Translations under genes and position numbers: made by a program
Part shown: piece after piece, positions 5,154 to 61,263 of the stretch
How positions within the stretch are numbered: position 1 is the first letter of the stretch
Layout of the letters: the number at the start of each line of letters is the position of its first letter
DNA from: an uncultured bacterium
GTDB lineage: Bacteria > Spirochaetota > JAHITG01
Reading direction: 5' to 3'
DNA: 64,000 nucleotides
Assembly: GCA_965373035.1 (NCBI GenBank)
Contig: CBDVEP010000001.1
Span: 272 to 64,271 of the forward strand
The notes under the pieces: generated by a model
Database searches by the model: none
What the model saw: the letters and a program-made list of their open reading frames with translations, nothing else
Told to the model about the DNA's origin: nothing

Positions 5154-5261
5154 AATATTATTATTTAAAATTTACTTATTTGTTTTATTATACCATATAA
5201 AAAATAATAAGTCATTTTTTTTTAGTTTCTTAATCATCATCTCTTATATAAACACAACTGT

Positions 5262-5393
5262 AGGGAGGGTTTAAACCCTCCCCTACATACAAAAAATACA
5301 GATTTAATGAATTAAAGTTTAATTTTTTCAGAGTTTCTAAGTTATCACCTCTTATGTAATCACAAAAGTAGGGGAGACTTTAGTCTTCCCTAC
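5262..5393. repeat. Two palindromic hairpin repeats of the CACA..GTAGGG-[stem-loop]-CCCTAC family (5262-5293 and 5366-5393)
   Basis: GTAGGGAGGG-TTTAAA-CCCTCCCCTAC and GTAGGGGAGAC-TTTA-GTCTTCCCTAC, downstream of hydF. The same terminal motif appears in the core of the MITE at 8984-9039. Confidence 0.55.
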
Positions 5394-5434
5394 TTTATTG
5401 CTTAAAAAAGATGGTAACCGACCCATTACTGTAA

Positions 5435-6682
5435 CTATTTTTCTACTTTATTTCTTTTTAAAACATCAAGTGCTGCCGGGAAAGGTGATAATACTTTTTC
5501 CAGCACACCATGCAGCATAGAAATACATACACCATAATTAGTAATAGGAACCTCATGCTCTCTTGCCTTTTGTATTCGCGACAGCATCTGCCTGCGATTC
5601 AGCATACAGCCTCCGCAGTGGATAATCAATTTATACTCTCCTAAATTATCAGGATAATCTTTACCTGCATATACCTTAATATCCAAATCAGTCCCTACAT
5701 ACTGCTTTAACCATCGTGGAATTTTTACCCTCCCAATATCATCTTCCAGAGCATGATGAGAACATGCTTCCGCAATCAGGATTTTATCATCAGGTTTAAG
5801 ATTATTAATCTGAGCAGCTCCCTTAACTGCCTCAATTAAATCACCTTTATACCTTGAAAAAAGAATGGAGAAAGTTGTACATTTTATATTAACAGGAGTA
5901 TCAGCAACCATTTTTAAAACAACTTGTGAGTCACAAACTACTATGGCAGGAGCATTTTTTAAATTATTAAGTAAGACAGGATATTCCCGCTCTTTTACTA
6001 TTAAAGCAGAAGCATCATTATCCAAAGCATCGCGTATTGTTTGTACCTGCGGCAGTATCAATCTTCCTTTTGGTGCTTCCATATCAATAGGCACTATTAA
6101 TATGCAGCTGCTTCCTGAAGGTAATAAATCACCAATCAAAGGAGGCGGTGATAGAAAATCATCGGGGCAAACTTCAATGAGATATTTTTTTAAGGTACTG
6201 ACATAAAAATTTCTTTTATCCTTATCAACACTACAGCAGAGAAAAAACCTTTTTGTCTTTTTTTTAATTTTTTTTAAAAAAGTTTTTGAAGGAATTTTTA
6301 AATCAATTTTATTAATCACAATAATTAAGGGGATTTTTCGATGCTTTGCTTCTAATACAATATCTTCTTCATAATGGTTCCAGATACCAGATTCTGCAAG
6401 CAGTATCATAATATCTGCCTGGTCAAATACTTTTTTTGTTTTTTTTATTCTTTGAGCAGCAAGAGCAGATTTATCAGATAACCCTGCAGTATCCAGAAAA
6501 AGCACAGGACCTAATGGTAAAAGCTCCATTGTCTTTTCCACTATATCTGTAGTTGTTCCGGCAACAGAAGATGTTATAGCCACATCCTGCCCGGCAATCA
6601 TATTTAAAAAACTTGATTTTCCTGCATTAGTCCTGCCAAATAAAGCAATATGTAATCTTAATGATTTAGGTGTTTTTTTCAT
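5435..6682 (-). CDS. hydF: [FeFe]-hydrogenase maturation GTPase HydF
   Basis: N-terminal GTPase (GRTNAGKSS, DTAGL, NKID). C-terminal Fe-S motif CSHH...HCGGC typical of HydF. Confidence 0.75.
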   Translation of the reverse strand: MKKTPKSLRLHIALFGRTNAGKSSFLNMIAGQDVAITSSVAGTTTDIVEKTMELLPLGPVLFLDTAGLSDKSALAAQRIKKTKKVFDQADIMILLAESGIWNHYEEDIVLEAKHRKIPLIIVINKIDLKIPSKTFLKKIKKKTKRFFLCCSVDKDKRNFYVSTLKKYLIEVCPDDFLSPPPLIGDLLPSGSSCILIVPIDMEAPKGRLILPQVQTIRDALDNDASALIVKEREYPVLLNNLKNAPAIVVCDSQVVLKMVADTPVNIKCTTFSILFSRYKGDLIEAVKGAAQINNLKPDDKILIAEACSHHALEDDIGRVKIPRWLKQYVGTDLDIKVYAGKDYPDNLGEYKLIIHCGGCMLNRRQMLSRIQKAREHEVPITNYGVCISMLHGVLEKVLSPFPAALDVLKRNKVEK

Positions 6683-7608: not shown

Positions 7609-8103
7609 TTATAATTCAATGTTGAATTGTTTAACTTTTAAAATTTTCAATATTCGATAAAGTGATTCAATAGTAATATTAGTTTTGCCCTGTTCAATTC
7701 TTGAAATATCTGATTGCTTAAATCCTGTTCGTTTTGCTAAGTCTATCTGAGTCATGTCTTTTTCAATCCTTGCTTTTTTTATTTTCTTCCCTATATCTAT
7801 CAAAAGTTGGATAGGTTTATCAATAGGTTGCTTTTTAATTAATTGTTCATAAATTGTTTCCCACCATGCAAGGAAAGTAGTTGCATGTGCAGTTTTATTC
7901 CAATATTTTTTAATCTTTGGCCATGAATTAATAAATTTTTCCTTATCTATAACTGAAAAAACTTCTTCTGGTCTATCACAATGAGAAAGTAATGTAACAA
8001 TTCTTGTTAAAAATTTAGGATGTTCAGGGTCTGGCAAAATATAATTTACTGTTTCTATTTGCGCCTGCTTATTTAAATCCCAAAAATATTTCTTTAAACT
8101 CAT
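7609..8103 (-). CDS. HTH_XRE-domain protein (putative antitoxin/regulator partner of the upstream nucleotidyltransferase)
   Basis: C-terminal XRE helix-turn-helix (DMTQIDLAKRTGFKQSDISRIEQGKTNITIESLYRILKIL). 4-nt overlap with the upstream gene. Confidence 0.55.
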   Translation of the reverse strand: MSLKKYFWDLNKQAQIETVNYILPDPEHPKFLTRIVTLLSHCDRPEEVFSVIDKEKFINSWPKIKKYWNKTAHATTFLAWWETIYEQLIKKQPIDKPIQLLIDIGKKIKKARIEKDMTQIDLAKRTGFKQSDISRIEQGKTNITIESLYRILKILKVKQFNIEL

Positions 8104-8807
8104 GATATAACACTCTCCATGAATTTTTTTATTTCATCATCTAAATATTTAATCATTATCGAAGAATCAAATTTTTTATCATATATATCAAAATCTAATA
8201 TGTTTATTTTAAGCTCCTGCCTGGAATAACTTCTATACCAGTAAATTATTCCTCTCTGTTGTTCTCTGGGCATCTTTTTTAAAAATTGATGAATAGGTAT
8301 ATAATTTTTAGATAAATAGTAAATATCAATTATATCTTTTCCCTCATTACGTCTTGTTATTTTTTCCCTTCCGATATTATCTATTTTCAAACGAGTACCT
8401 GCAATAGCCATAATTTTCTGGTAATAAATATGTTCAATATCATAGACTGCAACCTTATTAAATATATTTATAGTAGGATCACGAAAAAACACATCTTCAA
8501 TAAAATCAATTTTAAAAGTTAAATCTTTTTCAATTTCTGTTATATAAAATTTAACTTTTGCTCTGTTATTAGTAGTAAATTCATTTTCTAATTTTAATTC
8601 ATTATTTGTGACTTTTTCAAATTTAGTAACCAGATTACTAATCTCATTTTCATTATATTCATGACTAAAAAAATCAAGATCTCTTGAAAATCTATGGTGC
8701 AAATAATAAAGATCTAATGCTGTTCCACCTGCAAGTGCAAAACTATTATTATGTAAAGAAAAAACATTTAAAATATCTAATTGCAATTTTTTAATTTTTT
8801 TTTTCAT
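8100..8807 (-). CDS. Nucleotidyltransferase, AbiEii/DUF1814-like toxin family
   Basis: N-terminal LAGGTALDLYYLHHRFSRDLDFF motif typical of AbiEii-type nucleotidyltransferases. Confidence 0.5.
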   Translation of the reverse strand: MKKKIKKLQLDILNVFSLHNNSFALAGGTALDLYYLHHRFSRDLDFFSHEYNENEISNLVTKFEKVTNNELKLENEFTTNNRAKVKFYITEIEKDLTFKIDFIEDVFFRDPTINIFNKVAVYDIEHIYYQKIMAIAGTRLKIDNIGREKITRRNEGKDIIDIYYLSKNYIPIHQFLKKMPREQQRGIIYWYRSYSRQELKINILDFDIYDKKFDSSIMIKYLDDEIKKFMESVIS

Positions 8808-8949
8808 ATATTTTCAAAAATTATTATTTTAGTAAAAGTTCAAATATTATAGGTTCTAACCTATTTTTATTATAGCCTATAACCTATATTAATACATTTT
8901 TTTTCTTTTGTCAAGCTTTTTAAAAATAGATAGGGGAATATTAGACTCT

Positions 8950-9083
8950 AATTCCAGTAATGCGTAAATTACACTCACATTTTGTAGGGCGGGGATTTAT
9001 TCCCCGCCAAAAAAGGCGGTATATAAAATACCGCCCTACCATATTCCATAAAAAGAGGTGATAACTGACGCATTACTAATTCC
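8950..9083. mobile_element. MITE-like element: 6-bp direct repeat AATTCC flanking 10-bp terminal inverted repeats (AGTAATGCGT / ACGCATTACT) and a GC-rich hairpin core
   Basis: TSD at 8950-8955 and 9078-9083. TIRs at 8956-8965 and 9068-9077. Interior carries nested stem-loops (GTAGGGCGG..CCGCCCTAC, CGGGG-ATTTAT-CCCCG, GGCGGTA-TATAAAA-TACCGCC). Confidence 0.5.
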
Positions 9084-9095
9084 AAAACTTAAATA

Positions 9096-9130
9096 TTGAC
9101 ATTACATATAAATAATATATAATAATTATT
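9096..9130 (+). promoter_or_regulatory. Sigma-70-type promoter for the HDOD response-regulator gene
   Basis: TTGACA at 9096-9101, about a 16-17 nt spacer, then a TATAAT-like element. A strong SD (AAAGGAGGGGG) precedes the ATG at 9211. Confidence 0.4.
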
Positions 9131-9210: not shown

Positions 9211-10392
9211 ATGGTTAGATCTATTCTTGTTATTGATAATAAAGAATTAAATAATGTATTAAAAGAGGCTTTGCCAGGTAATGATTATAAAATTCTTTTT
9301 GCTGCAGATATAAAAGAAGGGTTGAATATTCTTGCTGAAGAAAAAATTCATTTAATGATATTAAATATGAAGATGCCTGGTATTGTTGAATTTGAGTTTT
9401 TACGTGAAATAAAATCAAAATATTTTTCATTAATAAAAGTAATATCTATATTAAATGAAGATGTAAAAGAAGATATTGTTATTCGCTCTATTACAGAAGG
9501 AATGGCAAAATCGTATATTACTAAACCATGGGATAACTCGTTATTAAAAAAACAAATTGTTTCCTTATTTGCCATGCAGGAGTCTTTAAATCAAAAAGAT
9601 TTACTGGAATTAATTAATAAAATTGACGAATTGCCTGTACTTCCTTTATTATATCAAAAAGTCATGAACCTTATTCAGCAGAATAAAGGGATCAATGAAA
9701 TAGCTGATGTGATTGAAAAAGAACCAGGATATGTAGCTAAAATAATAGGAATTGTAAATTCCGCGTTTTATGGAGGAAAGATCGGTTCTGTAAAACAAGC
9801 ACTCCTTTATCTTGGGACTAATACGATTAAGGATGTAATTCTCTTTGCTGATATTTTTGAATATTTCAGGCATGCTAAAATCAAAGCCTATGATATTAAC
9901 TTGCTCTGGAAACATTTTAATCTTTGCAACAAAATTATGCAGCATCTTTATTATAAAATTCATGGAAGAAAAATATTTGATAAATTTGCTTCAACAGGAT
10001 TATTACATGATATTGGTAAATTAATTATGTTGAAATATTTTCCTGAACAATTTCGGCAGATCTGGATAAAAAAAAATAAAAACCCTGACATTCCTTTTAC
10101 TGTCATTGAAAATGATATCTTAGGAGTATCACATACCCAGCTTGGAGCTTATCTTCTCAACTGGTGGAATCTCCCCAGCTATTTTATTGAAGTCTGCCTG
10201 TATCATCATAACCCTCTTAGTCAACAAATTGTTCATAGAGAATTAATATCCTTGATTCATATTGCTGATATTTATTCATGGAAAAAATTAAAAAAATTTT
10301 TATCAGTAAAAGTAATTCCAGAAGCCTATCAAATAGCCAATATTGATGAAGCAGCAGTTCAGGAAGTAGTTAATAAAGTAGATATAAATTAA
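9211..10392 (+). CDS. Response-regulator receiver + HDOD domain protein (atypical receiver, phospho-acceptor Asp replaced by Asn)
   Basis: CheY-like N-terminus in which the usual ..DLxxMP.. reads MILNMKMPG. HDOD signature (LPVLPLLYQKVMNLIQQ.., LLHDIGKLIM). Confidence 0.6.
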   Translation: MVRSILVIDNKELNNVLKEALPGNDYKILFAADIKEGLNILAEEKIHLMILNMKMPGIVEFEFLREIKSKYFSLIKVISILNEDVKEDIVIRSITEGMAKSYITKPWDNSLLKKQIVSLFAMQESLNQKDLLELINKIDELPVLPLLYQKVMNLIQQNKGINEIADVIEKEPGYVAKIIGIVNSAFYGGKIGSVKQALLYLGTNTIKDVILFADIFEYFRHAKIKAYDINLLWKHFNLCNKIMQHLYYKIHGRKIFDKFASTGLLHDIGKLIMLKYFPEQFRQIWIKKNKNPDIPFTVIENDILGVSHTQLGAYLLNWWNLPSYFIEVCLYHHNPLSQQIVHRELISLIHIADIYSWKKLKKFLSVKVIPEAYQIANIDEAAVQEVVNKVDIN

Positions 10393-10512
10393 AATACAGA
10401 ATCTGTGTACATCTGGCGGAAAAATTTCCATGAGTCATCTTTATGCAGATATAATTTATGCTCCTTGCAGCCGCTGCGGCTGCAAAGCTGGATAAAAAAG
10501 CATTTAAAAGCA
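10339..10512. repeat. Direct repeat copy A (~175 bp, ~93% identical to 12059-12245) flanking the DUF4143 ATPase insertion
   Basis: Includes the last ~50 nt of the HDOD gene plus the 3' end of a truncated copy of the convergent Cys-rich gene. Confidence 0.7.
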
Positions 10513-10528
10513 TAGACTAAATTATCAT

Positions 10529-11854
10529 CTAAGTTTTATAAAATTTTGGAAACAAAGAAATAGCATATAATGGAATATCACAAACATTCCTTGTTTGATT
10601 AAAATTCCTTTGAGATGTTCTTGTTAAATATTCAGGATTGTATTTTTTATCATAGACTTTTAAACTTTTAGCTTTAGTATTTAATCCTGATTTTACTTCT
10701 AATGGATATATTTTTTCATTATAACTCAATATGAAATCAACTTCTGCTGTATTTTTACTTGTCCAATAATATAATTCATTAAAATTATTTACTACTAATT
10801 CTTGTGCTGCATAATTTTCTGTAAAAGCACCATTATAAAATGTGAATAATTTATTACCGTCAATAATAGTCTTAGGAGATAAATTCAGCATTGCTCCAAG
10901 TAAACCAACATCAATTAAAAATAATTTGAAAAAATTATCATTTTTATATGCAGATAATGGCAATTTCGGAGTGGAAACATTATAAGATTTATATACAACA
11001 CCTGCATCAATTAACCATTGTATCGAGTCATGATACTCTCTTGATTTAGAATTTTTACTTATTTCAGAATATTTAAATTTTTTCTTTTCTTTAATTAATT
11101 GATTTGGAATTGAATTCCAGATATTATTTATTTTTATAGCTTCAGCCCTTGATGCATATCTTGTTACATCAATTGAATAAGCTGTTAATATTTCTTTTTG
11201 AATTTTTCTTACCGAAGTATAATCTTTAGTAGTAACATATTTCACTATAGCTTCCGGCATACCTCCAATATAATAATATAATTTCAGATATTCCAATAAT
11301 TTTTCATGGAAAGCTTCTGGTATTTCATCTAAATTTTTCTTGTTATCTAAAAACTTTTTTAATTGATTTTCTTTATTTGAATTTAAAAATTCACCAATTG
11401 ATAAAGGGAATAATTGCATAAAATTCACTTTCCCAACAGGAAATGAGGTCTTTTGATTTTTATATAAAAAAATCCCCAGTAATGACCCTGTAGCAATAAT
11501 ATGGTATTCATTATGGGTTTCATTAAAATATTTTAAACATGTTAATGTTTGAGGAGAATTCTGTATTTCATCAAATATAATTAATGTGTTTAAAGGTTCT
11601 ATTTTTTTATTTGAATAAATTGATAATTTTTCAATTATTTTTTCTGGATACTTTTTTCTCTGAAACAAGTTTATCAGATCAGGGTCTTCTTCAAAATTAA
11701 AATATACATAATTGACATATTCATTTTTACCAAATTCTTTTAAAATAAAAGTCTTTCCAACCTGTCTGGCACCTTTTAATATTAACGGTTTTCTATCTTC
11801 TGCATTCTTCCATACAATTAATTTATTATATATATCACGTTTTAAGCTTATCAT
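10529..11854 (-). CDS. AAA ATPase (AAA_14 + DUF4143 'ATP-binding protein' family)
   Basis: Walker A KGARQVGKTF and a DUF4143-type C-terminus. Paralog of 24806..26047. Confidence 0.75.
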   Translation of the reverse strand: MISLKRDIYNKLIVWKNAEDRKPLILKGARQVGKTFILKEFGKNEYVNYVYFNFEEDPDLINLFQRKKYPEKIIEKLSIYSNKKIEPLNTLIIFDEIQNSPQTLTCLKYFNETHNEYHIIATGSLLGIFLYKNQKTSFPVGKVNFMQLFPLSIGEFLNSNKENQLKKFLDNKKNLDEIPEAFHEKLLEYLKLYYYIGGMPEAIVKYVTTKDYTSVRKIQKEILTAYSIDVTRYASRAEAIKINNIWNSIPNQLIKEKKKFKYSEISKNSKSREYHDSIQWLIDAGVVYKSYNVSTPKLPLSAYKNDNFFKLFLIDVGLLGAMLNLSPKTIIDGNKLFTFYNGAFTENYAAQELVVNNFNELYYWTSKNTAEVDFILSYNEKIYPLEVKSGLNTKAKSLKVYDKKYNPEYLTRTSQRNFNQTRNVCDIPLYAISLFPKFYKT

Positions 11855-12058: not shown

Positions 12059-12245
12059 AATATTGATGAAGCAGCAGTTAAGGAAGTAGTTAATAAAGTA
12101 GATATAAATTAAAATATAGAATCTGTGTACATCTGGCGGAAAAATTTCCATGAGTCATCTTTATGCAGATATAATTTATGCTCCTTGCAACCGATACGGC
12201 TGCAAAATTGGATAATACTGTTTGTAAAAGCATTTAAAAGTACAG
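12059..12245. repeat. Direct repeat copy B (partner of 10339-10512)
   Basis: Same sequence as copy A with a ~12-nt indel. Overlaps the 3' end of the intact Cys-rich gene 12109..12585. Confidence 0.7.
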
Positions 12246-14170: not shown

Positions 14171-14253
14171 AAAGAATGGGGACGGTTCTAATACTTTTTT
14201 ACAACATCTATTTTTTCTCTTTCTAAAAAGTATTAGAACCGTCTCCATTCTTT
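14171..14253. repeat. Long near-perfect inverted repeat (29-bp arms, 24-nt loop) containing the TGGGGACGG box
   Basis: AAAGAATGGGGACGGTTCTAATACTTTTTT ... AAAAAGTATTAGAACCGTCTCCATTCTTT, with a single G·U position. Related half-copies occur at ~16262 and ~18299. Confidence 0.6.
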
Positions 14254-14299: not shown

Positions 14300-14695
14300 A
14301 TGAATAAAAAAGATTTAATTAAATATTGGATTAAAAGTTCTGATCAAGATATAAAGGCAATGGATCATTTGTTTAATAATAAAGATTATCATTGGTCATT
14401 ATTCCTAGGGCATTTAGTAATTGAAAAACTTCTTAAAGCATATTATGTTAAGAAACAAAATAATAATGCACCACCTATACATAATTTATTAAGAATAGCT
14501 GAAAAATCAAAATTAAAAATTGATAACCAACAAGAAGATTTACTCGCAACATTATCTACTTTTAATATCCGAACGAGATATGATGATTATAAATTAGAAT
14601 TTTATAAAATGTGTACTAAAAATTTTACAGCAAACTGGCTCAAGCAAATAAAAAGGTTTCGAAAATGGATAAAAAAAAAATTATCAGATCAATAA
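14300..14695 (+). CDS. HEPN-domain protein (HEPN/MNT toxin-antitoxin pair)
   Basis: Size and context. Overlaps a minimal nucleotidyltransferase gene. Confidence 0.5.
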   Translation: MNKKDLIKYWIKSSDQDIKAMDHLFNNKDYHWSLFLGHLVIEKLLKAYYVKKQNNNAPPIHNLLRIAEKSKLKIDNQQEDLLATLSTFNIRTRYDDYKLEFYKMCTKNFTANWLKQIKRFRKWIKKKLSDQ

Positions 14696-14973
14696 AAGGG
14701 TATATTGCCTTACTAAAACAAAATAAATATGCCATCCAAAAAGTATACCTATTCGGATCAATTATAAAAGGGAAAAGTCATAAAGATAGTGATATTGACA
14801 TAGCTGTTATAATAAAAAATTTAACAAACAGTTTTAACACTCAAGTACAATTAATGAAATTAGTAAAAAATATCGATTCCCGTATTGAACCTCATCCATT
14901 TGATGAAAAAGCTTTTAACTCTTCAAATCCCTTTGCTGCAGAAATTATTAAAACTGGAAAACAAATTATATAA
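14665..14973 (+). CDS. Minimal nucleotidyltransferase (MNT) partner of HEPN
   Basis: VYLFGSIIKGKSHKDSDIDIAVII (GS..DxD nucleotidyltransferase motif). Confidence 0.6.
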   Translation: MDKKKIIRSIKGYIALLKQNKYAIQKVYLFGSIIKGKSHKDSDIDIAVIIKNLTNSFNTQVQLMKLVKNIDSRIEPHPFDEKAFNSSNPFAAEIIKTGKQII

Positions 14974-14986
14974 AAAGAAGAAAAGA

Positions 14987-15100
14987 ATGTATTTGTTTGG
15001 TTCATTTTTACATAAAAATAATTTTTATTGCAACTCTGATATTGATATAGCAGTTGAGGGTAACTTCTCAAAATTCCTCCCGTCAGTGACGCATTACTGA
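14987..15100 (+). pseudogene. Truncated second MNT copy (38-codon fragment)
   Basis: MYLFGSFLHKNNFYCNSDIDIAVEGNF then stop. Overlaps/abuts the full MNT gene. Confidence 0.4.
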
Positions 15101-15154
15101 AAATTAAAATTTATTGACAACTGATTAAAAATGGTAAAATTATAAAAAATGAGA
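15097..15154 (+). repeat. ~58-bp repeat carrying a TTGACA / TG-n-TAAAAT promoter-like module (copy 1; copy 2 at 18390-18451)
   Basis: Identical 44-mer TTATTGACAACTGATTAAAAATGGTAAAATTATAAAAAATGAGA in both copies. Copy 1 is preceded by a solo TGACGCATTACT, the MITE TIR sequence. Confidence 0.55.
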
Positions 15155-16329: not shown

Positions 16330-16565
16330 AGGTGGAAAGATGAAGAATATGATTTTTTATATAGAACATATATAATACAGGTAAAATAATTACCATAGGG
16401 CCATGGGAATTAAAAGGAGGAAATGAAAATATAGCTAAAAAACTATTTGTTTCTGCTCTTTCAAATCTGAGACCCAGGAAAAAAATATTTTTAGACGTAC
16501 CTTCAACAAACAAAACAGCAAACAAGATATTAACCAGACACAATTTTATAGTTAGAAGAATATGA
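16330..16565 (+). pseudogene. Decayed fragment copy of the C-terminus of the GNAT gene at 36040..36915
   Basis: Translation GKIITIGPWELKGGNENIAKKLFVSALSNLRPRKKIFLDVPSTNKTANKILTRHNFIVRRI* compared with ..GKIITIGPWELKGGDEDIAEKLFVSSLSNLKSGKKIFLDIPSTNKTAKKILTRHNFII.. of the intact gene. The near-identical antisense ORFs 16292..16543 and 36143..36334 in the track reflect the same duplication. Confidence 0.7.
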
Positions 16566-16659: not shown

Positions 16660-17469
16660 TTATTTCAAAACTATCTTATTCTTCTTCAATAATGAAGATA
16701 TAATATCAGAAGCATTGCTGATTAATTCTGCATCATGCTCATCAAAGAGAAAAGGTCTGAGCTGCTCTGCCTGCTTTTTTAATTCTCCTTTTGAAAGACT
16801 TTGTATTCTTTTTATAATAATATTTTCAGGTTTATCTTTAATGCCCAGTATAGAAAGAATATGTTTATCCACAGGATGCTTATTTGAAAGCATAAAAATA
16901 ATATCATATAAATGCCGTGCCCTATTCTTTTTAACAAGAGCATCTATTTTATTAGCAAAAAGTATAGCATTATTTGTACATATACAGGGATAAATTTCTC
17001 CAAATCCGGATATACCTTTAGATTCTTGTATAACTTTCCATTTAGGCAGATTGGTTTCTAATTTAATAATTATTCCCGTTTTTTTTGAGTATTTTGATAC
17101 GATATTATAAAATTTCTCTATTGCTGGGAATATTAACTTTGAAACATACATATTATCCCAATGTGAAAATTGAACTGATGATTCTATGCCTTTTCGCTGT
17201 AATTCTTTTACTACTTTATATAAAAGATTTTCAAATTCTTTTTTAGAAATTTTATTTGCATAAAAATCTAAATCTTCTGAAAATCTTTTACTATTGTAAA
17301 TAAGTCTGAGATAAGTACCCCCTGTAAAAAAAAGTTTTTTACCTGAAGGTGTTCTATAAATTTCTTTTAAAATAAGAACATGGAGGTATTCTCTTAATAT
17401 TCCTCTTGTTTTTGTAACTGGCATTTGACGCAATCTTGCCTGTTCTATTAATGCATCATAAGTAAGCAT
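16660..17469 (-). CDS. Nucleotidyltransferase AbiEii/AbiGii toxin (type IV TA)
   Basis: KLFFTGGTYLRLIYNSKRFSEDLDFY motif. Overlaps the upstream AbiEi-like gene by 14 nt. Confidence 0.65.
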   Translation of the reverse strand: MLTYDALIEQARLRQMPVTKTRGILREYLHVLILKEIYRTPSGKKLFFTGGTYLRLIYNSKRFSEDLDFYANKISKKEFENLLYKVVKELQRKGIESSVQFSHWDNMYVSKLIFPAIEKFYNIVSKYSKKTGIIIKLETNLPKWKVIQESKGISGFGEIYPCICTNNAILFANKIDALVKKNRARHLYDIIFMLSNKHPVDKHILSILGIKDKPENIIIKRIQSLSKGELKKQAEQLRPFLFDEHDAELISNASDIISSLLKKNKIVLK

Positions 17470-18064: not shown

Positions 18065-18389
18065 TTCAGATAATATACTTTTTTGTTAACTATCTGAAAT
18101 AAACATATTATTTTTTATAATTATGTCAAGTAAAAAGATTTGAAACATCCTGTTCAATAGAGCCACAACGGAATTAATGAAGAAATGAGAAAGATTCTTA
18201 AGGTGATTTTGCAATCGCTTTTCTTATGTTTTTAAAACATATTTATATTTTAGCCCGATTATTATAAAAGTCAAGTTTTGTTTCTATCGTGTTTATTTGA
18301 AAAATGGGGACAGATCCTATTTTTTTCTATTTTTTTATGTCAAAGTAAAAAGTAAAGACCCGATATTTTCCTGATTTTCCTTGAATCCG

Positions 18390-18451
18390 GTGAAAAATTA
18401 ATAAATTTATTGACAACTGATTAAAAATGGTAAAATTATAAAAAATGAGAA
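18390..18451 (+). promoter_or_regulatory. Copy 2 of the TTGACA/extended -10 repeat, positioned as the promoter of the MBL-fold gene
   Basis: Identical 44-mer at 18408-18451. The gene's ATG is at 18474. Confidence 0.5.
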
Positions 18452-18473
18452 AAGGAAATTTTTATATATAAAA

Positions 18474-23057: not shown

Positions 23058-23489
23058 GTTTATAATATTTTTAAAATCCGCATAATTAATATGCAATTTT
23101 TATATACACTATCCTCCACATTTTACAATAAAATTTATAAAATTAAACAAATTTAGTAACTTTCAGCAGAATATATTTTGGAATTAATCCTTCAGGATTT
23201 CATTACTTTAAAAATGAAACATGAGCAAGCCATTTCATCCCAAGAAGAGGTAGTATATACTCAAAAAATTTTACAAAGATAAAAAGCTTCCTTGATATAA
23301 GGAAATTATAATATATATTTGTCTTTAGGTGAAAGAAACTATGAAAGCAATATTTGAACAGTTAATTGTAGATTTTCATGGGTCTAAAATTCCACAGCCT
23401 AGTAAAAGAGAATTAACTCTTCTGTCTCTACCTATTTTAAACAAATGATATCAGGACATTTTTTATATTTATCTTATTCTTTTTATTTC

Positions 23490-23925
23490 TCATTTCCATG
23501 GTCCATGAGCTTTCCATGTTTCGTTAAACTTATAATCCTTCTTGATTGCATCAAGTGGCTTAATAAGAAACCTTTCTATCTCCTTTGCTGTAGTAGACAA
23601 CTTTTCAGGTGCATGTTTAATATCTCCCTTTTTCAAAAATGCATTCCAAAGTATTTGGCGATCCGATTTTTCATCATAGATTTCTTCAGCAAATAATGGG
23701 CTATCCTGCGGAAAAGGAGTCTTACGATGCTTAAAAGTTCTTCTTAACGCTTCGGCAAGTTGAAATCCATTAAAATTGAACTGGCGCATCATTAGCCATA
23801 TATCATAGAAATCTTTCCATACCATAATACTGCAGAATTTCTGAAAATGAACGATTAGTTTCTTTAGCTTTATTTTGGAGCCGGGCTCGTACAGAAGCTT
23901 GTAAATTCTTGATATCTTTTTTCAT
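23490..23925 (-). pseudogene. Degraded AbiEii toxin gene (N-terminal 40 codons, stop, then C-terminal 111-codon ORF in another frame)
   Basis: MKKDIKNLQASVRARLQNKAKETNRSFSEILQYYGMERFL* starts at 23925, overlapping the AbiEi stop. An AbiEii C-terminal-like ORF 23490..23825 follows. Confidence 0.5.
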
Positions 23926-24524
23926 AGCATAGTCTCAAGTATTGGTTTTATGATATTATCAACACGGCAAATCTTGGCATATTGCATTATTTCTTTTGGT
24001 TTTACATTCTTTTCCGTAACAGCTACTTTAAGAGCTTCCCGTATAATGTTCATCCCGAGTTTATTACGGAATTTAAAACAATCCGCAATCGTCTTGGCAA
24101 GATTATAAACCTTGATTTTATAACCTTCTATTTTGTGTTCTTCAATTCCAGCCTCCCATGGTTTAGGACCAAAACGGTAAAATCTAACTGGAGGATATTT
24201 GATTCTATAAGCATGAGTACCCCGTGGAATAGCTATGTCCACATACTTAGGGATTTCAGTTGTTGCCTCATGAAAAGAAAGAGCAGAGAGAAGACAGATA
24301 ACTCCCCGGGGAGCCTGAAAAGATACAGCAACAAGGTCAGGATGGATCCCGGCAGTATAATTAGTCAGCTTGTAAAGTCCCCTGGCAATCTTTTCAACTT
24401 TCTTCTCTTTCTCAAGAGTGTTAAGTGAATCGGGATGAAATCCAGCTTTTAGAATAGCTGAAAACCTGACCACTCCGCCATTACTCTGGAAAAAATTTAT
24501 AAGTCCTTGTGTTTTTCTTTGCAT
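23922..24524 (-). CDS. AbiEi-family antitoxin domain protein (probable start at internal Met; long ORF extends to 24656)
   Basis: RGLYKL.. wHTH-like N-terminus from MQRKTQGLINFFQSNGGVVRFSAIL. Directly upstream of the AbiEii remnant. Confidence 0.5.
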   Translation of the reverse strand: MQRKTQGLINFFQSNGGVVRFSAILKAGFHPDSLNTLEKEKKVEKIARGLYKLTNYTAGIHPDLVAVSFQAPRGVICLLSALSFHEATTEIPKYVDIAIPRGTHAYRIKYPPVRFYRFGPKPWEAGIEEHKIEGYKIKVYNLAKTIADCFKFRNKLGMNIIREALKVAVTEKNVKPKEIMQYAKICRVDNIIKPILETML

Positions 24525-24771
24525 ACTGCCTCCGTATAATATTGTAACATTTATGAATAAGTATATATAATTTATACGAAAATGTAAAATATTTTTTTTA
24601 AACGTCAAATTCAGGGTTTCTTGAATCTCGTAATGCGAAAAAATTTTATCCGTCAATAAGCTTTTACCCTATCGGGTATCTGTGATCTATCATAAGTGTG
24701 AAATAAACTATTTACAGAAACAGGTGTAGAAGTAAGCTTTCCACCTTATAATAAAACAATGTAAATTTAAA

Positions 24772-24805
24772 TTGACTTTTTAAAATTACATGGTATAATT
24801 ATTAT
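24772..24805 (+). promoter_or_regulatory. Strong sigma-70 promoter with extended -10 placed for a leaderless transcript of the DUF4143 ATPase gene
   Basis: TTGACT (24772-24777), 16-nt spacer, TGgTATAAT (-10 at 24794-24799). ATG at 24806 is 7 nt after the -10. No SD. Confidence 0.55.
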
Positions 24806-26047
24806 ATGAATTATATTATAAGACAATTAGAAACTAAACTAATGCAGTATATTAAACAGTTTCCAATAGTTGTACTTACTGGTGCGAGACAATCAGGTAA
24901 ATCAACTTTATTAAAGCATTTATTCAGTAGTGATGACTGGGAATATATTAACTTAGATCAACGCGGGATATTAGAACAAATTAATTCTGATCCAGATTTA
25001 TTTATAAAGGATATTCGATCAAATATTATTATTGATGAAGCACAAAAATCTCCAAATTTATTTCATTCAATTAAATGGAAAATTGATGAAGGAATGAAGT
25101 ATAAAATAATCTTATCCGGATCAGCTAATTTTCACTTACTTCAAAAAGTAACTGAAACTTTAGCTGGTCGTGCCGGAATTTTGGAATTATATCCTTTATC
25201 TTTAAGTGAAAAACATAAACAGCATAATCTATTAGATTTACTTATAAATACTAATAATATTAATGAATTAAAAAACAAATTAAAGAAGATTAATCTTGTA
25301 AAAGATGATGATATATTTCTATATATACTTTGGGGTGGTTATCCAAAATTACTTGAGTATAAAAATTCAGAATTTAAGCTGAACTGGTTTGAAAATTATC
25401 GTACAACTTATATAGAAAGGGATTTAAGAGATTTAGCTCAAATAGCTGATCTAAGTGATTTTCAGCGTTTTTATCAATTGTTAGCCTTTCAAACCGGGAA
25501 TATATTAAATCTTTCCAATATAGCTAATGAAATAGGTATTACGGTACCTACATGTAAAAAATACATGCAAATTTTAGAATTATCATATCAATACTTTTTA
25601 CTAAAGCCTTATTATTCAAATATTAGAAAAAGATTAATTAAGTCTCCAAAAATTTACTGTATGGATACAGGTTTATGTAATTTTTTTCTAGAAAATAGTT
25701 CGCGTAAATTATTAATGAATTCCAGTAAATTAGGTAATTTGTTTGAAAATAGTGTAATTGTGGATATTATGAAACAAAATAGTTTTTTAAATAAAAAATG
25801 TAATATGTATTATTGGAGAACTTCAAATGGAACTGAGATTGATCTTGTAATTGAGCATGGTGAAAATCTTATACCAATTGAAATTAAATCCAGTATAAAA
25901 ATTTCATCTGTTTCAATAAGAGGTCTAACTGATTTTTTAGTATTAAAAATAAATAAAAAAATACCTTATGGAATAGTAATATATCGTGGAGACAGAGTTT
26001 CACAAATTTCAGATAAAATATTAGCTGTACCAATTGGTTATTTATAA
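24806..26047 (+). CDS. AAA ATPase (AAA_14 + DUF4143 family), second paralog
   Basis: Walker A TGARQSGKSTL. Same architecture as 10529..11854. Confidence 0.75.
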   Translation: MNYIIRQLETKLMQYIKQFPIVVLTGARQSGKSTLLKHLFSSDDWEYINLDQRGILEQINSDPDLFIKDIRSNIIIDEAQKSPNLFHSIKWKIDEGMKYKIILSGSANFHLLQKVTETLAGRAGILELYPLSLSEKHKQHNLLDLLINTNNINELKNKLKKINLVKDDDIFLYILWGGYPKLLEYKNSEFKLNWFENYRTTYIERDLRDLAQIADLSDFQRFYQLLAFQTGNILNLSNIANEIGITVPTCKKYMQILELSYQYFLLKPYYSNIRKRLIKSPKIYCMDTGLCNFFLENSSRKLLMNSSKLGNLFENSVIVDIMKQNSFLNKKCNMYYWRTSNGTEIDLVIEHGENLIPIEIKSSIKISSVSIRGLTDFLVLKINKKIPYGIVIYRGDRVSQISDKILAVPIGYL

Positions 26048-26169
26048 TAAAAACAGAGAAAAATAATAGCAATTTGCTTATTAAAAAATTATAGCTATTT
26101 AATTTAAAAAATGTATTTTATAATAACACAATTATAATATAGTAATTTTGCATTAATAAGGAGGCGTTT

Positions 26170-26640
26170 ATGAAGACAAGGACTAAACAATTCATTTCCC
26201 TGGGAATAGTTTTTTTAATTCTTTTTTTTATCAGTTGTGCTCCTGGTAATGTGAAATTTGATAAAACTCCTGCGGGATTTTTGGCAGGATTGTGGCATGG
26301 ATTTATCTGTCTTTTTACATTCATTATAAGTCTTTTTTCAGATAAAGTAGTAATTTATGAAACAGCAAATACCGGGGGATGGTATAATTTCGGATTTATT
26401 CTTGGGCTGGCTATATTCTGGGGAGGCAGCAGCAAATCGCATTCTAAGTCAAAATCTAAGAAGAAAAAATTGAAAGAAAAAGAGTGGGAAGGGATTGTTT
26501 CAAAAGTTGAAGAAAAAGTCCGCAAAGGTATAAAAAACTGGTTAGATGAGTCTAATGAGAAAAATAAAGACTGGGAAGAGATTGGTAAAAAAATAGAAGA
26601 AAAGATTAAACGGGAATTATGCAATTGGGCAGAGAAGTAA
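26170..26640 (+). CDS. Hypothetical membrane/lipoprotein with a Lys/Glu-rich C-terminal tail
   Basis: Signal/lipobox-like FFISC, two TM-like segments, then KSHSKSKSKKKKLKEKEWE... SD GGAGG upstream. Confidence 0.35.
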   Translation: MKTRTKQFISLGIVFLILFFISCAPGNVKFDKTPAGFLAGLWHGFICLFTFIISLFSDKVVIYETANTGGWYNFGFILGLAIFWGGSSKSHSKSKSKKKKLKEKEWEGIVSKVEEKVRKGIKNWLDESNEKNKDWEEIGKKIEEKIKRELCNWAEK

Positions 26641-26666
26641 TTAATTCGGCAAAACAATCCTCCTGT

Positions 26667-27080
26667 TCATGAGTTTTTTATAATTTTTACACGGAAAAAT
26701 TTTGTTTTTTTCTTAAAAATATATTTTAAAAATATCATTAATAATATAAATACTATAATACCTGTTAATAGTGCCATTAATTCTGAGTTTTTTATCAAAT
26801 CAAAATATTTAGCAATATAATTTCCTAAAACAAGACCAAATAACAAACCAATAATAGGTATTCCTTAAATTAATAGTATATATAGAATCATCTTATTTTC
26901 CGGAATCTCAATTGCAATTTTCTGATTTAAAGATAAATCTCCAGTATTTTTCGTATAAATAATATAAGTTCCATCAACTTTTTTTGTGCATAATTGACAA
27001 TTACTACATGCTGAAGATGGGCTTACCTTTACTGTTACAATATCATCATTTATATTTACAATTCCCCCTTTTTCCTTCAT
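26667..27080 (-). pseudogene. RseC/MucC-family protein gene interrupted by an in-frame TAA (26865-26867)
   Basis: N-terminal ..VKVSPSSACSNCQLCTK.. (RseC-like Cys motif). After the stop the same frame continues GIPIIGLLFGLVLGNYIAKYF..MALLTGIIVFILLMIF.. (the two TM helices expected for RseC). Confidence 0.45.
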
Positions 27081-27589
27081 GTTCTATTCTCCTTTAAAAA
27101 ATAGAATAGTAGACTGCTAAAACAAGGATTATATAAAAAGAACAATGATTATCCAACCAGTAATTGTATCACCCTACTTTTTATAACAGTGTTAAATTCT
27201 CCTTTAAGCATAGCTTCATTTACATTAGTATTTCCTTCAACTCTATCAAGTAGTCTAACAGCATAATATCTATCAGAGTAACCAATTCCCAAAAAAACAA
27301 TTTACCCTTGAAGCCCTCCTGAAATAAAAAGAGAGATATTAATATCTCTCTTTTTATAATATTAATGTAAGGATTAACATAGGAATGTCAAGTATATTAT
27401 CTCTAAATTTTGACCATTTCACTTAATGTTTAGCAGATTAAAAGAAGTTGACAAATAAATACTAATAGTATTAATGAATTAAAAAACAAGTTAAATGATT
27501 GATTGTAAATATTTCATTCCATCAGAAGAATATACAGCGATGAAACAGCAGATTGTTATGCAAAAAGATATTACAAAAATAGTTACCTG

Positions 27590-27642
27590 ATTTAAAGTAT
27601 AAAAAAAGGAGAGATTAACCACAATGGGTTAACCTCTCCTTT
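27590..27642 (-). terminator. Intrinsic terminator of glnA
   Basis: 16-bp stem AAAGGAGAGATTAACC / GGTTAACCTCTCCTTT followed, on the minus strand, by a U7 tract. Confidence 0.6.
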
Positions 27643-36039: not shown

Positions 36040-36915
36040 CTATCCCATTGATCCCATTGTAGCAAAACTAAAAATTTCATTAAAATGAATCCTGGGCAAT
36101 TTCCCGCGGCACATAAATATTGTAGAACTTATAATTATAAAATTGTGTCTGGTTAATATCTTTTTTGCTGTTTTGTTTGTTGAAGGGATATCTAAAAATA
36201 TTTTTTTTCCGGATTTCAAATTTGAAAGAGAAGAAACAAATAGTTTTTCAGCTATATCTTCATCTCCTCCTTTTAATTCCCATGGTCCTATGGTAATTAT
36301 TTTACCTGTATTTTTATACATTATAAATCCATGAGAATTTGGATAGAATAAAGAATTATGCGAAGATGAAAGCCGGAAAATTAAAGAACCCCTTTCATCT
36401 CTCCATAATGATGTATCTAACTTTATAAAACGTGTTGTCTCAGGAATAGTTTCCTGTAGAATTGCTTTACTATTTTTAGATTTTTTTGACCTGCCCTGCC
36501 AACGGTTTATTTGCATAACTTTTTTAAATCCAAATTTTTCATATAATCCTTTTGCTTTTAAGGCAGCATTTAAATAAATCTGCTTTTTTTTCATTTTATC
36601 CAAATACTCAATGGCACTTGATAAAAGTTTTTTGCCTATAGCCTCTCCACGATGTTCTTTAGCAACAATTAAATTACCTATCCACGAACTTTTTGCATAA
36701 CTAAAAGTCATAACAGAACCAATAACTTTTTTATTTTTAACACAAACAAAACAACCTAATGGATTAAATTCAAGAAACATTTGAAATTCAACTATATCAG
36801 ATATCCAGCCCTCTTTAGCTGTTATTTGTAAAATAGCTGGCAGATCTTTTTTTGTCATATATCTGATTTGCATAGTTTTTTCCTTACTTTCCTTATTATT
36901 GAAACTATTGAACAA
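36040..36915 (-). CDS. GNAT-family N-acetyltransferase (tandem acetyltransferase-like domains), last gene of the nif-linked minus-strand cluster
   Basis: ..IGKKLLSSAIEYL.. acetyl-CoA-binding-like motif. Its C-terminal fragment is duplicated at 16330-16565. Confidence 0.5.
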   Translation of the reverse strand: MFNSFNNKESKEKTMQIRYMTKKDLPAILQITAKEGWISDIVEFQMFLEFNPLGCFVCVKNKKVIGSVMTFSYAKSSWIGNLIVAKEHRGEAIGKKLLSSAIEYLDKMKKKQIYLNAALKAKGLYEKFGFKKVMQINRWQGRSKKSKNSKAILQETIPETTRFIKLDTSLWRDERGSLIFRLSSSHNSLFYPNSHGFIMYKNTGKIITIGPWELKGGDEDIAEKLFVSSLSNLKSGKKIFLDIPSTNKTAKKILTRHNFIIISSTIFMCRGKLPRIHFNEIFSFATMGSMG

Positions 36916-60986: not shown

Positions 60987-61263
60987 AAAATATTGGAATA
61001 AAACTGCACATGCAACTACTTTCTTCACCTGGTGGGATACGATTTATGAACAATTAGTTAAAAAGCAACCTATTGATAAACCTATTCAACTTTTAAAAGA
61101 TATTGGGAAGAAAATAAAAAAAGCAAGAGAGTATGAGGTTCCCATCACTAATTATGGTGTATGTATTTCTATGGTACAGGGTGTATTGGAAAGAATATTA
61201 TCACTTTTTCCAGCAGCACTTGATGTTTTAAAGAGAAATAAAGTGAAAATAAAAATATCTTGA
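60987..61263 (+). pseudogene. Chimeric gene remnant: N-terminal fragment of the HTH_XRE protein (7609..8103) fused in-frame to the C-terminal fragment of hydF (5435..6682)
   Basis: Translation KTAHATTFFTWWDTIYEQLVKKQPIDKPIQLLKDIGKKIKKARE|YEVPITNYGVCISMVQGVLERILSLFPAALDVLKRNKVKIKIS*. No start codon. Junction at shared ..KKAR-E.. microhomology. Confidence 0.75.

Follow-up and report, generated by a model that had tools for sequence, protein, structure and literature searches.

Some mobile elements insert at a fixed distance from a recognised landmark and spare the neighbouring gene, as Tn7 does through TnsD at attTn7 and yeast Ty3 and Ty1 do at RNA polymerase III promoters. These systems use dedicated target-selector proteins or tethering to transcription factors. 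Among small non-coding elements, the Correia (Neisseria), RUP, ERIC and MITEAba12 elements resemble the element described here: they are intergenic palindromes of ~100-160 bp that have terminal inverted repeats, duplicate their target, are often found close to promoters and can fold into stable hairpins as RNA. The duplication is TA for Correia elements and 9 bp for MITEAba12, and we know of no description of any of the four types as inserting at one fixed distance from a -35 hexamer. To our knowledge, there is likewise no fixed promoter-anchored target site for IS66 elements. IS66-family elements carry a 20-30-bp terminal repeat starting GTAAGCG and 8-bp direct repeats (PMC11946415), and a published IS66 repeat reads GTAAGCGTCCGGCGAACTCACCTT (PMC12888890). 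Here we describe element A, a 120-bp miniature inverted-repeat transposable element (MITE) in a 64-kb stretch of contig CBDVEP010000001.1 from an uncultured bacterium (hereafter the window, whose own numbering is used throughout). We conclude that element A is very probably a non-autonomous, IS66-like MITE of a family that integrates at a fixed distance upstream of the -35 hexamer.

Element A is a genuine MITE of a known kind, with corrected boundaries. A repeat finder reported a flanking direct repeat of 9 nt, CTAATTCCA, at 8948-8956 and 9076-9084, which overlaps the ends of the inverted repeats. By applying the register of family copies in a second genome (JBDRHR01, see below), we placed the element at 8957-9076, flanked by an 8-bp duplication, TAATTCCA. 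The chance probability of an 8/8 flanking duplication at fixed ends is roughly 3e-5. The inverted repeat is perfect over the outer 9 nt, reaches 88% complementarity over 16 nt, and extends in alignments to imperfect arms of ~24 nt. In a sensitive self-search, element A aligned over its full length with its own reverse complement (E = 4e-6), and the open reading frames (ORFs) that overlap it are spurious ones of 29-36 aa only.

The preliminary description had proposed a 122-bp MITE-like element with a 6-bp target duplication and 10-bp terminal repeats. All the strings it quoted are present (AATTCC at 8950-8955, AGTAATGCGT at 8956-8965, ACGCATTACT at 9068-9077 and AATTCC at 9078-9083), and its parse describes the same feature, shifted by one base on the left and two bases on the right. 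The family copies and their duplications bear out the MITE, while its size is now 120 bp. Family comparison replaces the 6-bp duplication by one of 8 bp, and alignment replaces the 10-bp repeats by the ~24-nt arms.

To define the family, the arm-only 19-mer AGTAATGSGTCRGTTAYCA was scanned in 185,579 species-representative genomes. It gave 14 matches, 13 of them in one metagenome-assembled genome (MAG), Nitrospirota bacterium isolate MEGAHIT-group-1.534 (JBDRHR01). This MAG has 36-41% G+C, and in the loci retrieved from it the identity of the two proteins with counterparts in the window is only 51-61%, indicating a different organism. The 13 sites share a conserved outer 18-mer, GTAATGsGTCAGTTATCA, which the right repeat of element A matches at 17 of 18 positions. 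The JBDRHR01 copies are imperfect palindromes of 145-165 bp, GTAATGGGTCAGTTATCAGGGGG...CCCCnnnnAACTGACCsATTAC, with interiors unrelated to that of element A; one of them (L017) holds a pair of GTAG-headed hairpins, like element A. Clean 8/8 duplications flank five of the copies, and a sixth copy belongs to a tandem arrangement. Among them, complete copies have the perfect 8-bp duplications TATAGTTT, TGCTGATA, CTTGCACA and CTTCGGGA, and a further 8/8 duplication, CCTGTGGA, belongs to a tandem arrangement. JBDRHR01 is fragmented, and many copies lie at contig ends, as expected of repeats.

The combined arm-plus-core pattern AGTTATCACCTCTTN{8,25}GTAGGG had no match in the 185,579 genomes and only 4 unrelated GC-rich chance matches in a metagenome collection. 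Two scans of viral contigs returned 0 matches and then 5 chance matches inside coding sequence, and a BLAST search of both MITE types against plasmids gave nothing relevant. JBDRHR01 also carries other GTAA-ended MITEs, at L015 431-643, L013 1891-2071 and L008 3228-3374 (GTAACAATTCAGCC, GTAAGCGTTCAGCC and GTAAGCATTCAGTAATCA, respectively). The first two have 8/8 and 7/8 duplications, the 7/8 one belonging to the MITE with canonical GTAAGCGTTCAGCC ends, and the third has none (2/8); in none of the three is an end 19 nt from a -35 hexamer.

We then examined where the family sits. Flanks were read outward from 24 termini that match the family terminus with at most 3 mismatches, and a hexamer was called strict if it began with TTG and agreed with TTGACA at 5 or more of 6 positions. 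A strict hexamer was found at offset exactly 19 for 9 of the 24 termini, and only three others occurred in offsets 0-54 (at 22, 29 and 51). Strict hexamers have a background frequency of 0.0038 per position in this DNA, so that ~0.09 would be expected at one offset. When TTGCAA and TTGCAT sites and the L017 copy are counted, the distance of 19 nt between one end and a -35-like hexamer holds for 13 of ~15 elements, and the promoter-proximal end may be either end of the element. Each site continues from the hexamer through a ~17-nt spacer and a TGnTATAAT-like -10 to a same-direction ORF 30-260 nt downstream. Spacers and genes differ between sites, which marks the promoters as independent ones of the host. 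Alignment of the sites yields the consensus: duplication (8 nt), n2, AAA, TTTTT, C, TTGACA. Ascertainment does not explain this pattern, because the search pattern contained no flank bases except an A just outside the terminus. Element A shows the same geometry: it ends with base 9076, and the 19 nt TAATTCCAAAACTTAAATA stand between this base and the TTGACA that starts at 9096. Its reported position just upstream of the promoter of a response regulator with an HDOD domain is thus upheld. The literature searched, with partial coverage that makes this a weak negative, contained no insertion sequence or MITE whose target site is set by a constant spacing from the -35 and no fixed promoter-anchored target for IS66. 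The fixed promoter-anchored target site of the family therefore appears to be undescribed so far. The coordinates of element A and related features are listed in Table 1.

Table 1. Positions in the window of element A, its relatives and the neighbouring genes and promoters
Feature	Position	Strand	Description
Element A	8957-9076	.	120-bp non-coding MITE, GTAATGCGT...ACGCATTAC
Left copy of 8-bp target-site duplication	8949-8956		TAATTCCA; direct-repeat search, register set by family copies with 8/8 duplications
Right copy of 8-bp target-site duplication	9077-9084		TAATTCCA; direct-repeat search, family register
Left terminal inverted repeat	8957-8983	+	Outer 9 nt intact, inner part degenerate (GTAATGCGTAAATTACACTCACATTTT)
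Right terminal inverted repeat	9053-9076	-	Intact; reverse complement GTAATGCGTCAGTTATCACCTCTT
GC-rich core	8984-9039	.	GTAGGG and CCCTAC bracket two hairpins, GGCGGGGA-TTTA-TTCCCCGCC and GGCGGTAT-ATAAA-ATACCGCC
Response-regulator/HDOD promoter	9096-9123	+	TTGACA, 16-nt spacer, TATAAT; 12/12 consensus positions
Element B	5340-5429	.	Second family copy by sensitive self-search; outer left end (10 nt) lost
Element B left arm	5340-5353		AGTTATCACCTCTT; exact reverse complement of the element A 14-mer AAGAGGTGATAACT
Element B hairpin	5368-5393		Single hairpin, GTAGGGGAGAC-TTTA-GTCTTCCCTAC
Element B right repeat	5408-5429		AAGATGGTAACCGACCCATTAC, intact
Segment C	5224-5286	.	Partial tandem duplicate of element B left flank, left arm and hairpin
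Solo right terminus	15087-15097	+	TGACGCATTAC; 16 nt upstream of TTGACA (15114-15119)
Duplicate promoter module without terminus	18391-18415	+	Exactly 19 nt (TGAAAAATTAATAAATTTA, 18391-18409), then TTGACA 18410-18415
Response regulator with HDOD domain	9211-10392	+	Pfam Response_reg and HDOD; downstream of the targeted promoter
Divergent promoter-like site for the AbiEii/HTH pair (8807-7609)	8886-8914	-	TTGACA, 17-nt spacer, TAATAT; 42 nt from left end of element A
AbiEii toxin gene	8807-8100	-	Left neighbour of element A
HTH protein gene (antitoxin)	8103-7609	-	Left of AbiEii

The window itself holds further traces of the family. The degenerate 19-mer, with at most 3 mismatches, matches twice in the window (the arms of elements A and B), against 0.01 expected. 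Elements A and B share the exact 14-mer AAGAGGTGATAACT and the arm AGTAATGGGTCGGTTACCA. Element B, 3.5 kb from element A, lies between the hydF stop (5435) and the nfeD start (5153) and ends 5 nt from the hydF stop codon. In segment C, the left arm occupies 5224-5245, and the hairpin GTAGGGAGGG-TTTAAA-CCCTCCCCTAC occupies 5260-5286. A four-way alignment gave the family plan: a ~24-nt arm GTAATGsGTCAGTTATCACCTCTT, a ~12-nt spacer, a core of GTAGGG-hairpin(s)-CCCTAC, a second ~12-nt spacer and the inverted arm. The right arms of both elements are intact; the left arm of element A has decayed in its inner part, and the outer left end of element B is gone. Judged from these sequences, element B, segment C and the solo end at 15087-15097 are probably decayed relics of the family of element A. 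The preliminary description had anticipated further copies or remnants, and its call for other copies is answered by element B in the window and by the multi-copy family of JBDRHR01, the one genome in which the family is seen to be abundant.

A rearrangement elsewhere in the window involves the element B locus. Directly upstream of the gltB promoter (TTGACA at 61263), the stretch 60987-61249 joins two inverted fragments, one from the HTH antitoxin gene (7769-7909) and one from the 3' end of hydF (5440-5576). The boundary of the hydF fragment is within ~6 nt of the element B terminus at the original locus.

The solo end had been reported at 15093-15104. We found the sequence, TGACGCATTACT, beside the repeated promoter module as described, with its position corrected by 6 nt to 15087-15098. 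Inward of the terminus, the sequence passes directly into a second MNT nucleotidyltransferase gene that is truncated, with its N-terminal part (KRMYLFGS...SDIDIAV) at the junction. The promoter module beside it is duplicated at 18403-18461 with 93% identity, and in pairwise alignment the similarity of the two modules starts at the first base past ...CATTAC. Because the terminus stands at the edge of a duplicated module whose other copy has none, the solo terminus is most likely a real remnant, the rest of the element having evidently been lost by deletion. The other module copy, at 18391-18415, serves as a paralogous empty site and is the only evidence of an empty site. An 11-mer terminus match is expected ~0.02 times in the window (base-composition estimate), and the background rate puts the chance of a -35 hexamer at a distance of 16-22 nt at ~3%; with both rates low together, chance is an unlikely source of the pair. 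The 16-nt spacing of the solo end can be read as 19 nt minus small deletions in A/T runs.

Duplicated promoter modules (-35, spacer, -10 and leader) are found at 15107-15165/18403-18461, 15231-15305/58525-58599 and 14055-14086/15259-15290/33352-33383. Some of them have no downstream gene, e.g. the patchwork at 15.1-15.4 kb. At L013 of JBDRHR01, a different promoter stands at each end, with no duplication. The duplication of promoter modules could have come from recombination between promoter-adjacent repeats.

The ends of element A resemble those of IS66 elements in that they begin with GTAA, form ~24-bp repeats and are flanked by an 8-bp duplication. The published IS66 repeat and the repeat of element A, GTAATGCGTCAGTTATCACCTCTT, have GTAA.GCGTC...TCACCT in common. 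The repeat of element A starts GTAATGCG, in which GTAA is present and GCG is displaced by one T. Because no transposase was found among the ORFs scanned, the IS66 assignment is drawn from these end features only, and they suggest that an IS66-family transposase mobilised element A. Two JBDRHR01 loci were considered as autonomous elements and rejected: in L009, weak terminus pairs 3 kb apart enclose housekeeping genes, and L014 leads into no transposase ORF. The Correia, RUP, ERIC and MITEAba12 elements, although similar in size and plan, have no sequence similarity to the family, whose duplication is of 8 bp.

On this basis, the following course of insertion is proposed. A transposase encoded elsewhere would bind the ~24-bp terminal inverted repeats through ends of the GTAATGsGTCAGTTATCA type and would integrate the element via cuts staggered by 8 bp, which would account for the TAATTCCA duplication. 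The site before insertion would have read ...GACTCTAATTCCAAAACTTAAATATTGACA... with a single TAATTCCA. Integration would not be random: the 8 duplicated bp and a further 11 bp separate the element from a sigma-70-type -35, placing the duplicated bases at ~-54 to -47, the upstream edge of the RNA polymerase footprint. The landmark might be the -35/AT-tract sequence, DNA bending or promoter-bound polymerase. Element A left both hexamers of the HDOD promoter (-35 and -10) intact, together with 19 bp of native upstream DNA, and retention of this upstream DNA and of the whole core promoter suggests that the insertion was near-neutral for the promoter. The same event displaced the divergent AbiE promoter 128 bp further off and brought in a minus-strand hairpin followed by T6.

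We consider the chances about even that the GTAATGsGTCAGTTATCA family and its transposase use the promoter itself as an integration landmark, through either the AAATTTTTC-TTGACA upstream/-35 sequence or bound RNA polymerase/sigma, with cuts 8 bp apart, 11-19 bp upstream of the -35. As an analogy of mechanism only, this would resemble Tn7 TnsD and the Ty elements in the fixed distance from a recognised landmark. It would differ from them in that the landmark would be a generic bacterial -35/AT-tract.

Several observations weigh against an IS66-like family with a fixed promoter-anchored target. The family ends read GTAATGC/G and not the canonical GTAAGCG, and no transposase with matching ends (TnpA, TnpB or TnpC) was found among the 50 window ORFs or the 10 ORFs of L009 and L014. 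The 64-kb window holds one intact copy, the others being the truncated element B with its tandem partial duplicate and the solo end. Element B adjoins no promoter, the solo end lies 16 nt and not 19 nt from its -35, and one JBDRHR01 copy lies at 22 nt. Most of the 13 promoter-side sites belong to a single fragmented MAG, and if insertions at other places tend to be lost, survivorship could be part of the pattern. Finally, a relative at ~92% nucleotide identity, identified via GlnA in the Logan assemblies of SRR29278628 and SRR29278629, gave no empty site, as its contigs do not cover the sites of elements A and B. Its NfeD contig ends 59 nt upstream of the gene, before element B and segment C, and its AIM24 contig is 1 kb long. 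In addition, a contig from ENA with HEPN-MNT diverges from the window right after the MNT stop codon.

The alternative that survives best accepts the MITE as real and attributes its proximity to promoters to selection, with random insertions of which only harmless ones persist. A site at 19 nt leaves both promoter hexamers (-35 and -10) and the 19 bp of AT-rich DNA upstream of them undisturbed, and would be the first position that does not damage the promoter; element B and two JBDRHR01 copies do lie away from promoters. Selection, however, predicts a spread of distances of at least 19 nt, whereas we observed a spike, with nine strict hexamers at 19 and three across the other offsets. Moreover, two other GTAA-type MITEs with 8-bp duplications in JBDRHR01 do not show the 19-nt pattern. 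Since these MITEs come from the same MAG, general intergenic survivorship is disfavoured and the rule is specific to the family. Hence, we regard selection on its own as an unlikely explanation.

The fold of the core bears on two further alternatives. The preliminary description of a GC-rich interior with stem-loops bounded by GTAGGG...CCCTAC proved accurate: the core has ~50% G+C, against 24-37% per 2 kb across the window, and its fold is far stabler than that of shuffled sequence. The RNA fold of element A has an energy of -50 kcal/mol, with z-scores of -7.3 for the plus strand and -5.8 for the minus strand; as DNA, z = -6.4. The second core hairpin is followed by T6 on the minus strand. GTAGGG...CCCTAC structures occur three times in the window, at 5260, 5368 and 8984.

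With two GC-rich, GTAG-headed hairpins in inverted orientation, this core resembles REP, BIME and REPIN sequences, and one might ask whether it is an element of this type, with GTAG palindromes mobilised by a RAYT tyrosine transposase and with incidental outer repeats. The three window structures and the similar pair in L017 fit such an origin. Across all loci, however, GTAG-headed hairpins numbered 5, against 1-6 for control heads, which is no enrichment, and the REP/RAYT origin was dropped after this count. REPs accompany a RAYT gene, number tens to hundreds of copies and make neither the terminal repeats nor the target duplication that element A has, and no Y1_Tnp/RAYT was present among the window ORFs scanned. 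Two of the three window hairpins are tandem duplicates of each other, and most family interiors are unrelated. We therefore find a REP origin very hard to credit.

A native regulatory or RNA feature is similarly improbable. It could be an operator (TGACGCATTAC is common to two promoters), a small RNA, or a terminator or insulator between AbiE and HDOD. In favour of such a feature, two strong promoters are preceded by the same 11-12-mer, the fold has high stability, and the minus-strand hairpin with its T6 is terminator-like. But a terminator scan made no call, including for this hairpin-T6, and Rfam returned no family in the window at the gathering threshold; in a relaxed search, the best match was SraB with 20.4 bits against a threshold of 130. 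With neither an Rfam match nor a terminator call, a small-RNA or terminator identity was dropped. An operator would leave unexplained the 8-bp duplication and the same termini around unrelated interiors, each with its own duplication, in another genome; the target duplications there speak equally against a small RNA or a terminator. Lastly, coincidence of the inverted 10-mers and the flanking AATTCC can be dismissed as refuted: the 10-mer end with at most 1 mismatch is not significantly enriched on its own (4 observed in the window against 2.1 expected), but virtually no room for chance is left by the existence of a second copy, by a family of 13 copies whose termini are identical, by the 8/8 duplications and by an insertion geometry common to the elements.

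Element A lies in a 403-bp spacer between divergent genes. The nearest homologue of the HDOD regulator has 61% identity and lacks synteny. The window has an unusually high density of toxin-antitoxin and defence-type modules (7609-8807, 14300-14973, 16660-17469 and 23490-24656). They comprise three AbiEii genes or fragments, one AbiEi, one HEPN-MNT pair and one truncated second MNT. Genes of nitrogen metabolism alternate with them (glnA, amt, P-II, a NifA-like activator and a nitrogenase-type oxidoreductase). Upstream of the HEPN gene, an inverted repeat at 14171-14253 has 29-nt arms that are 97% complementary (AAAGAATGGGGACGGTTCTAATACTTTTT), and a similar AATGGGGACAGATCCTA motif is located near 18310 (18303-18325).

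Other rearrangements were also found. A DUF4143/AAA_14 ATPase gene (10529-11854) is bracketed by 175-nt direct repeats with 93% identity (10339-10513 and 12059-12233), each of which holds the 3' ends of two convergent neighbour genes; it looks as if this cassette was inserted with a very long target duplication. A 4.5-kb segment at 23106-27601, carrying a second DUF4143 ATPase gene, an AbiEi gene and an AbiEii fragment, is missing from the ~92%-identity relative (L020/L021), in which glnA is directly followed by a 224-aa gene and amt. In the same relative (L021 5092-5235), the P-II gene (window 20264) adjoins a GNAT acetyltransferase gene (window 36041). The window arrangement is inverted by comparison, and a 185-nt GNAT fragment is left at 16374-16558 (corresponding to 36128-36312). 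The inverted order and the leftover fragment indicate an inversion or rearrangement of roughly 16-36 kb.

A lone MITE beside a regulator gene is ordinary, and a family that chooses one precise position relative to the -35 is what deserves attention. If this reading is true, the family would be a promoter-homing bacterial DNA transposon, conserved across two unrelated lineages, that places structured DNA at ~-55 of many promoters. It would represent a 'safe-harbour' strategy in which promoter and gene are spared, and a directly testable case of landmark-guided integration in bacteria. Such insertions could also account for the shuffling and duplication of promoter modules, several of which are seen in the window together with rearrangements, and the family might be put to use as a means of placing cargo upstream of promoters that stay functional.

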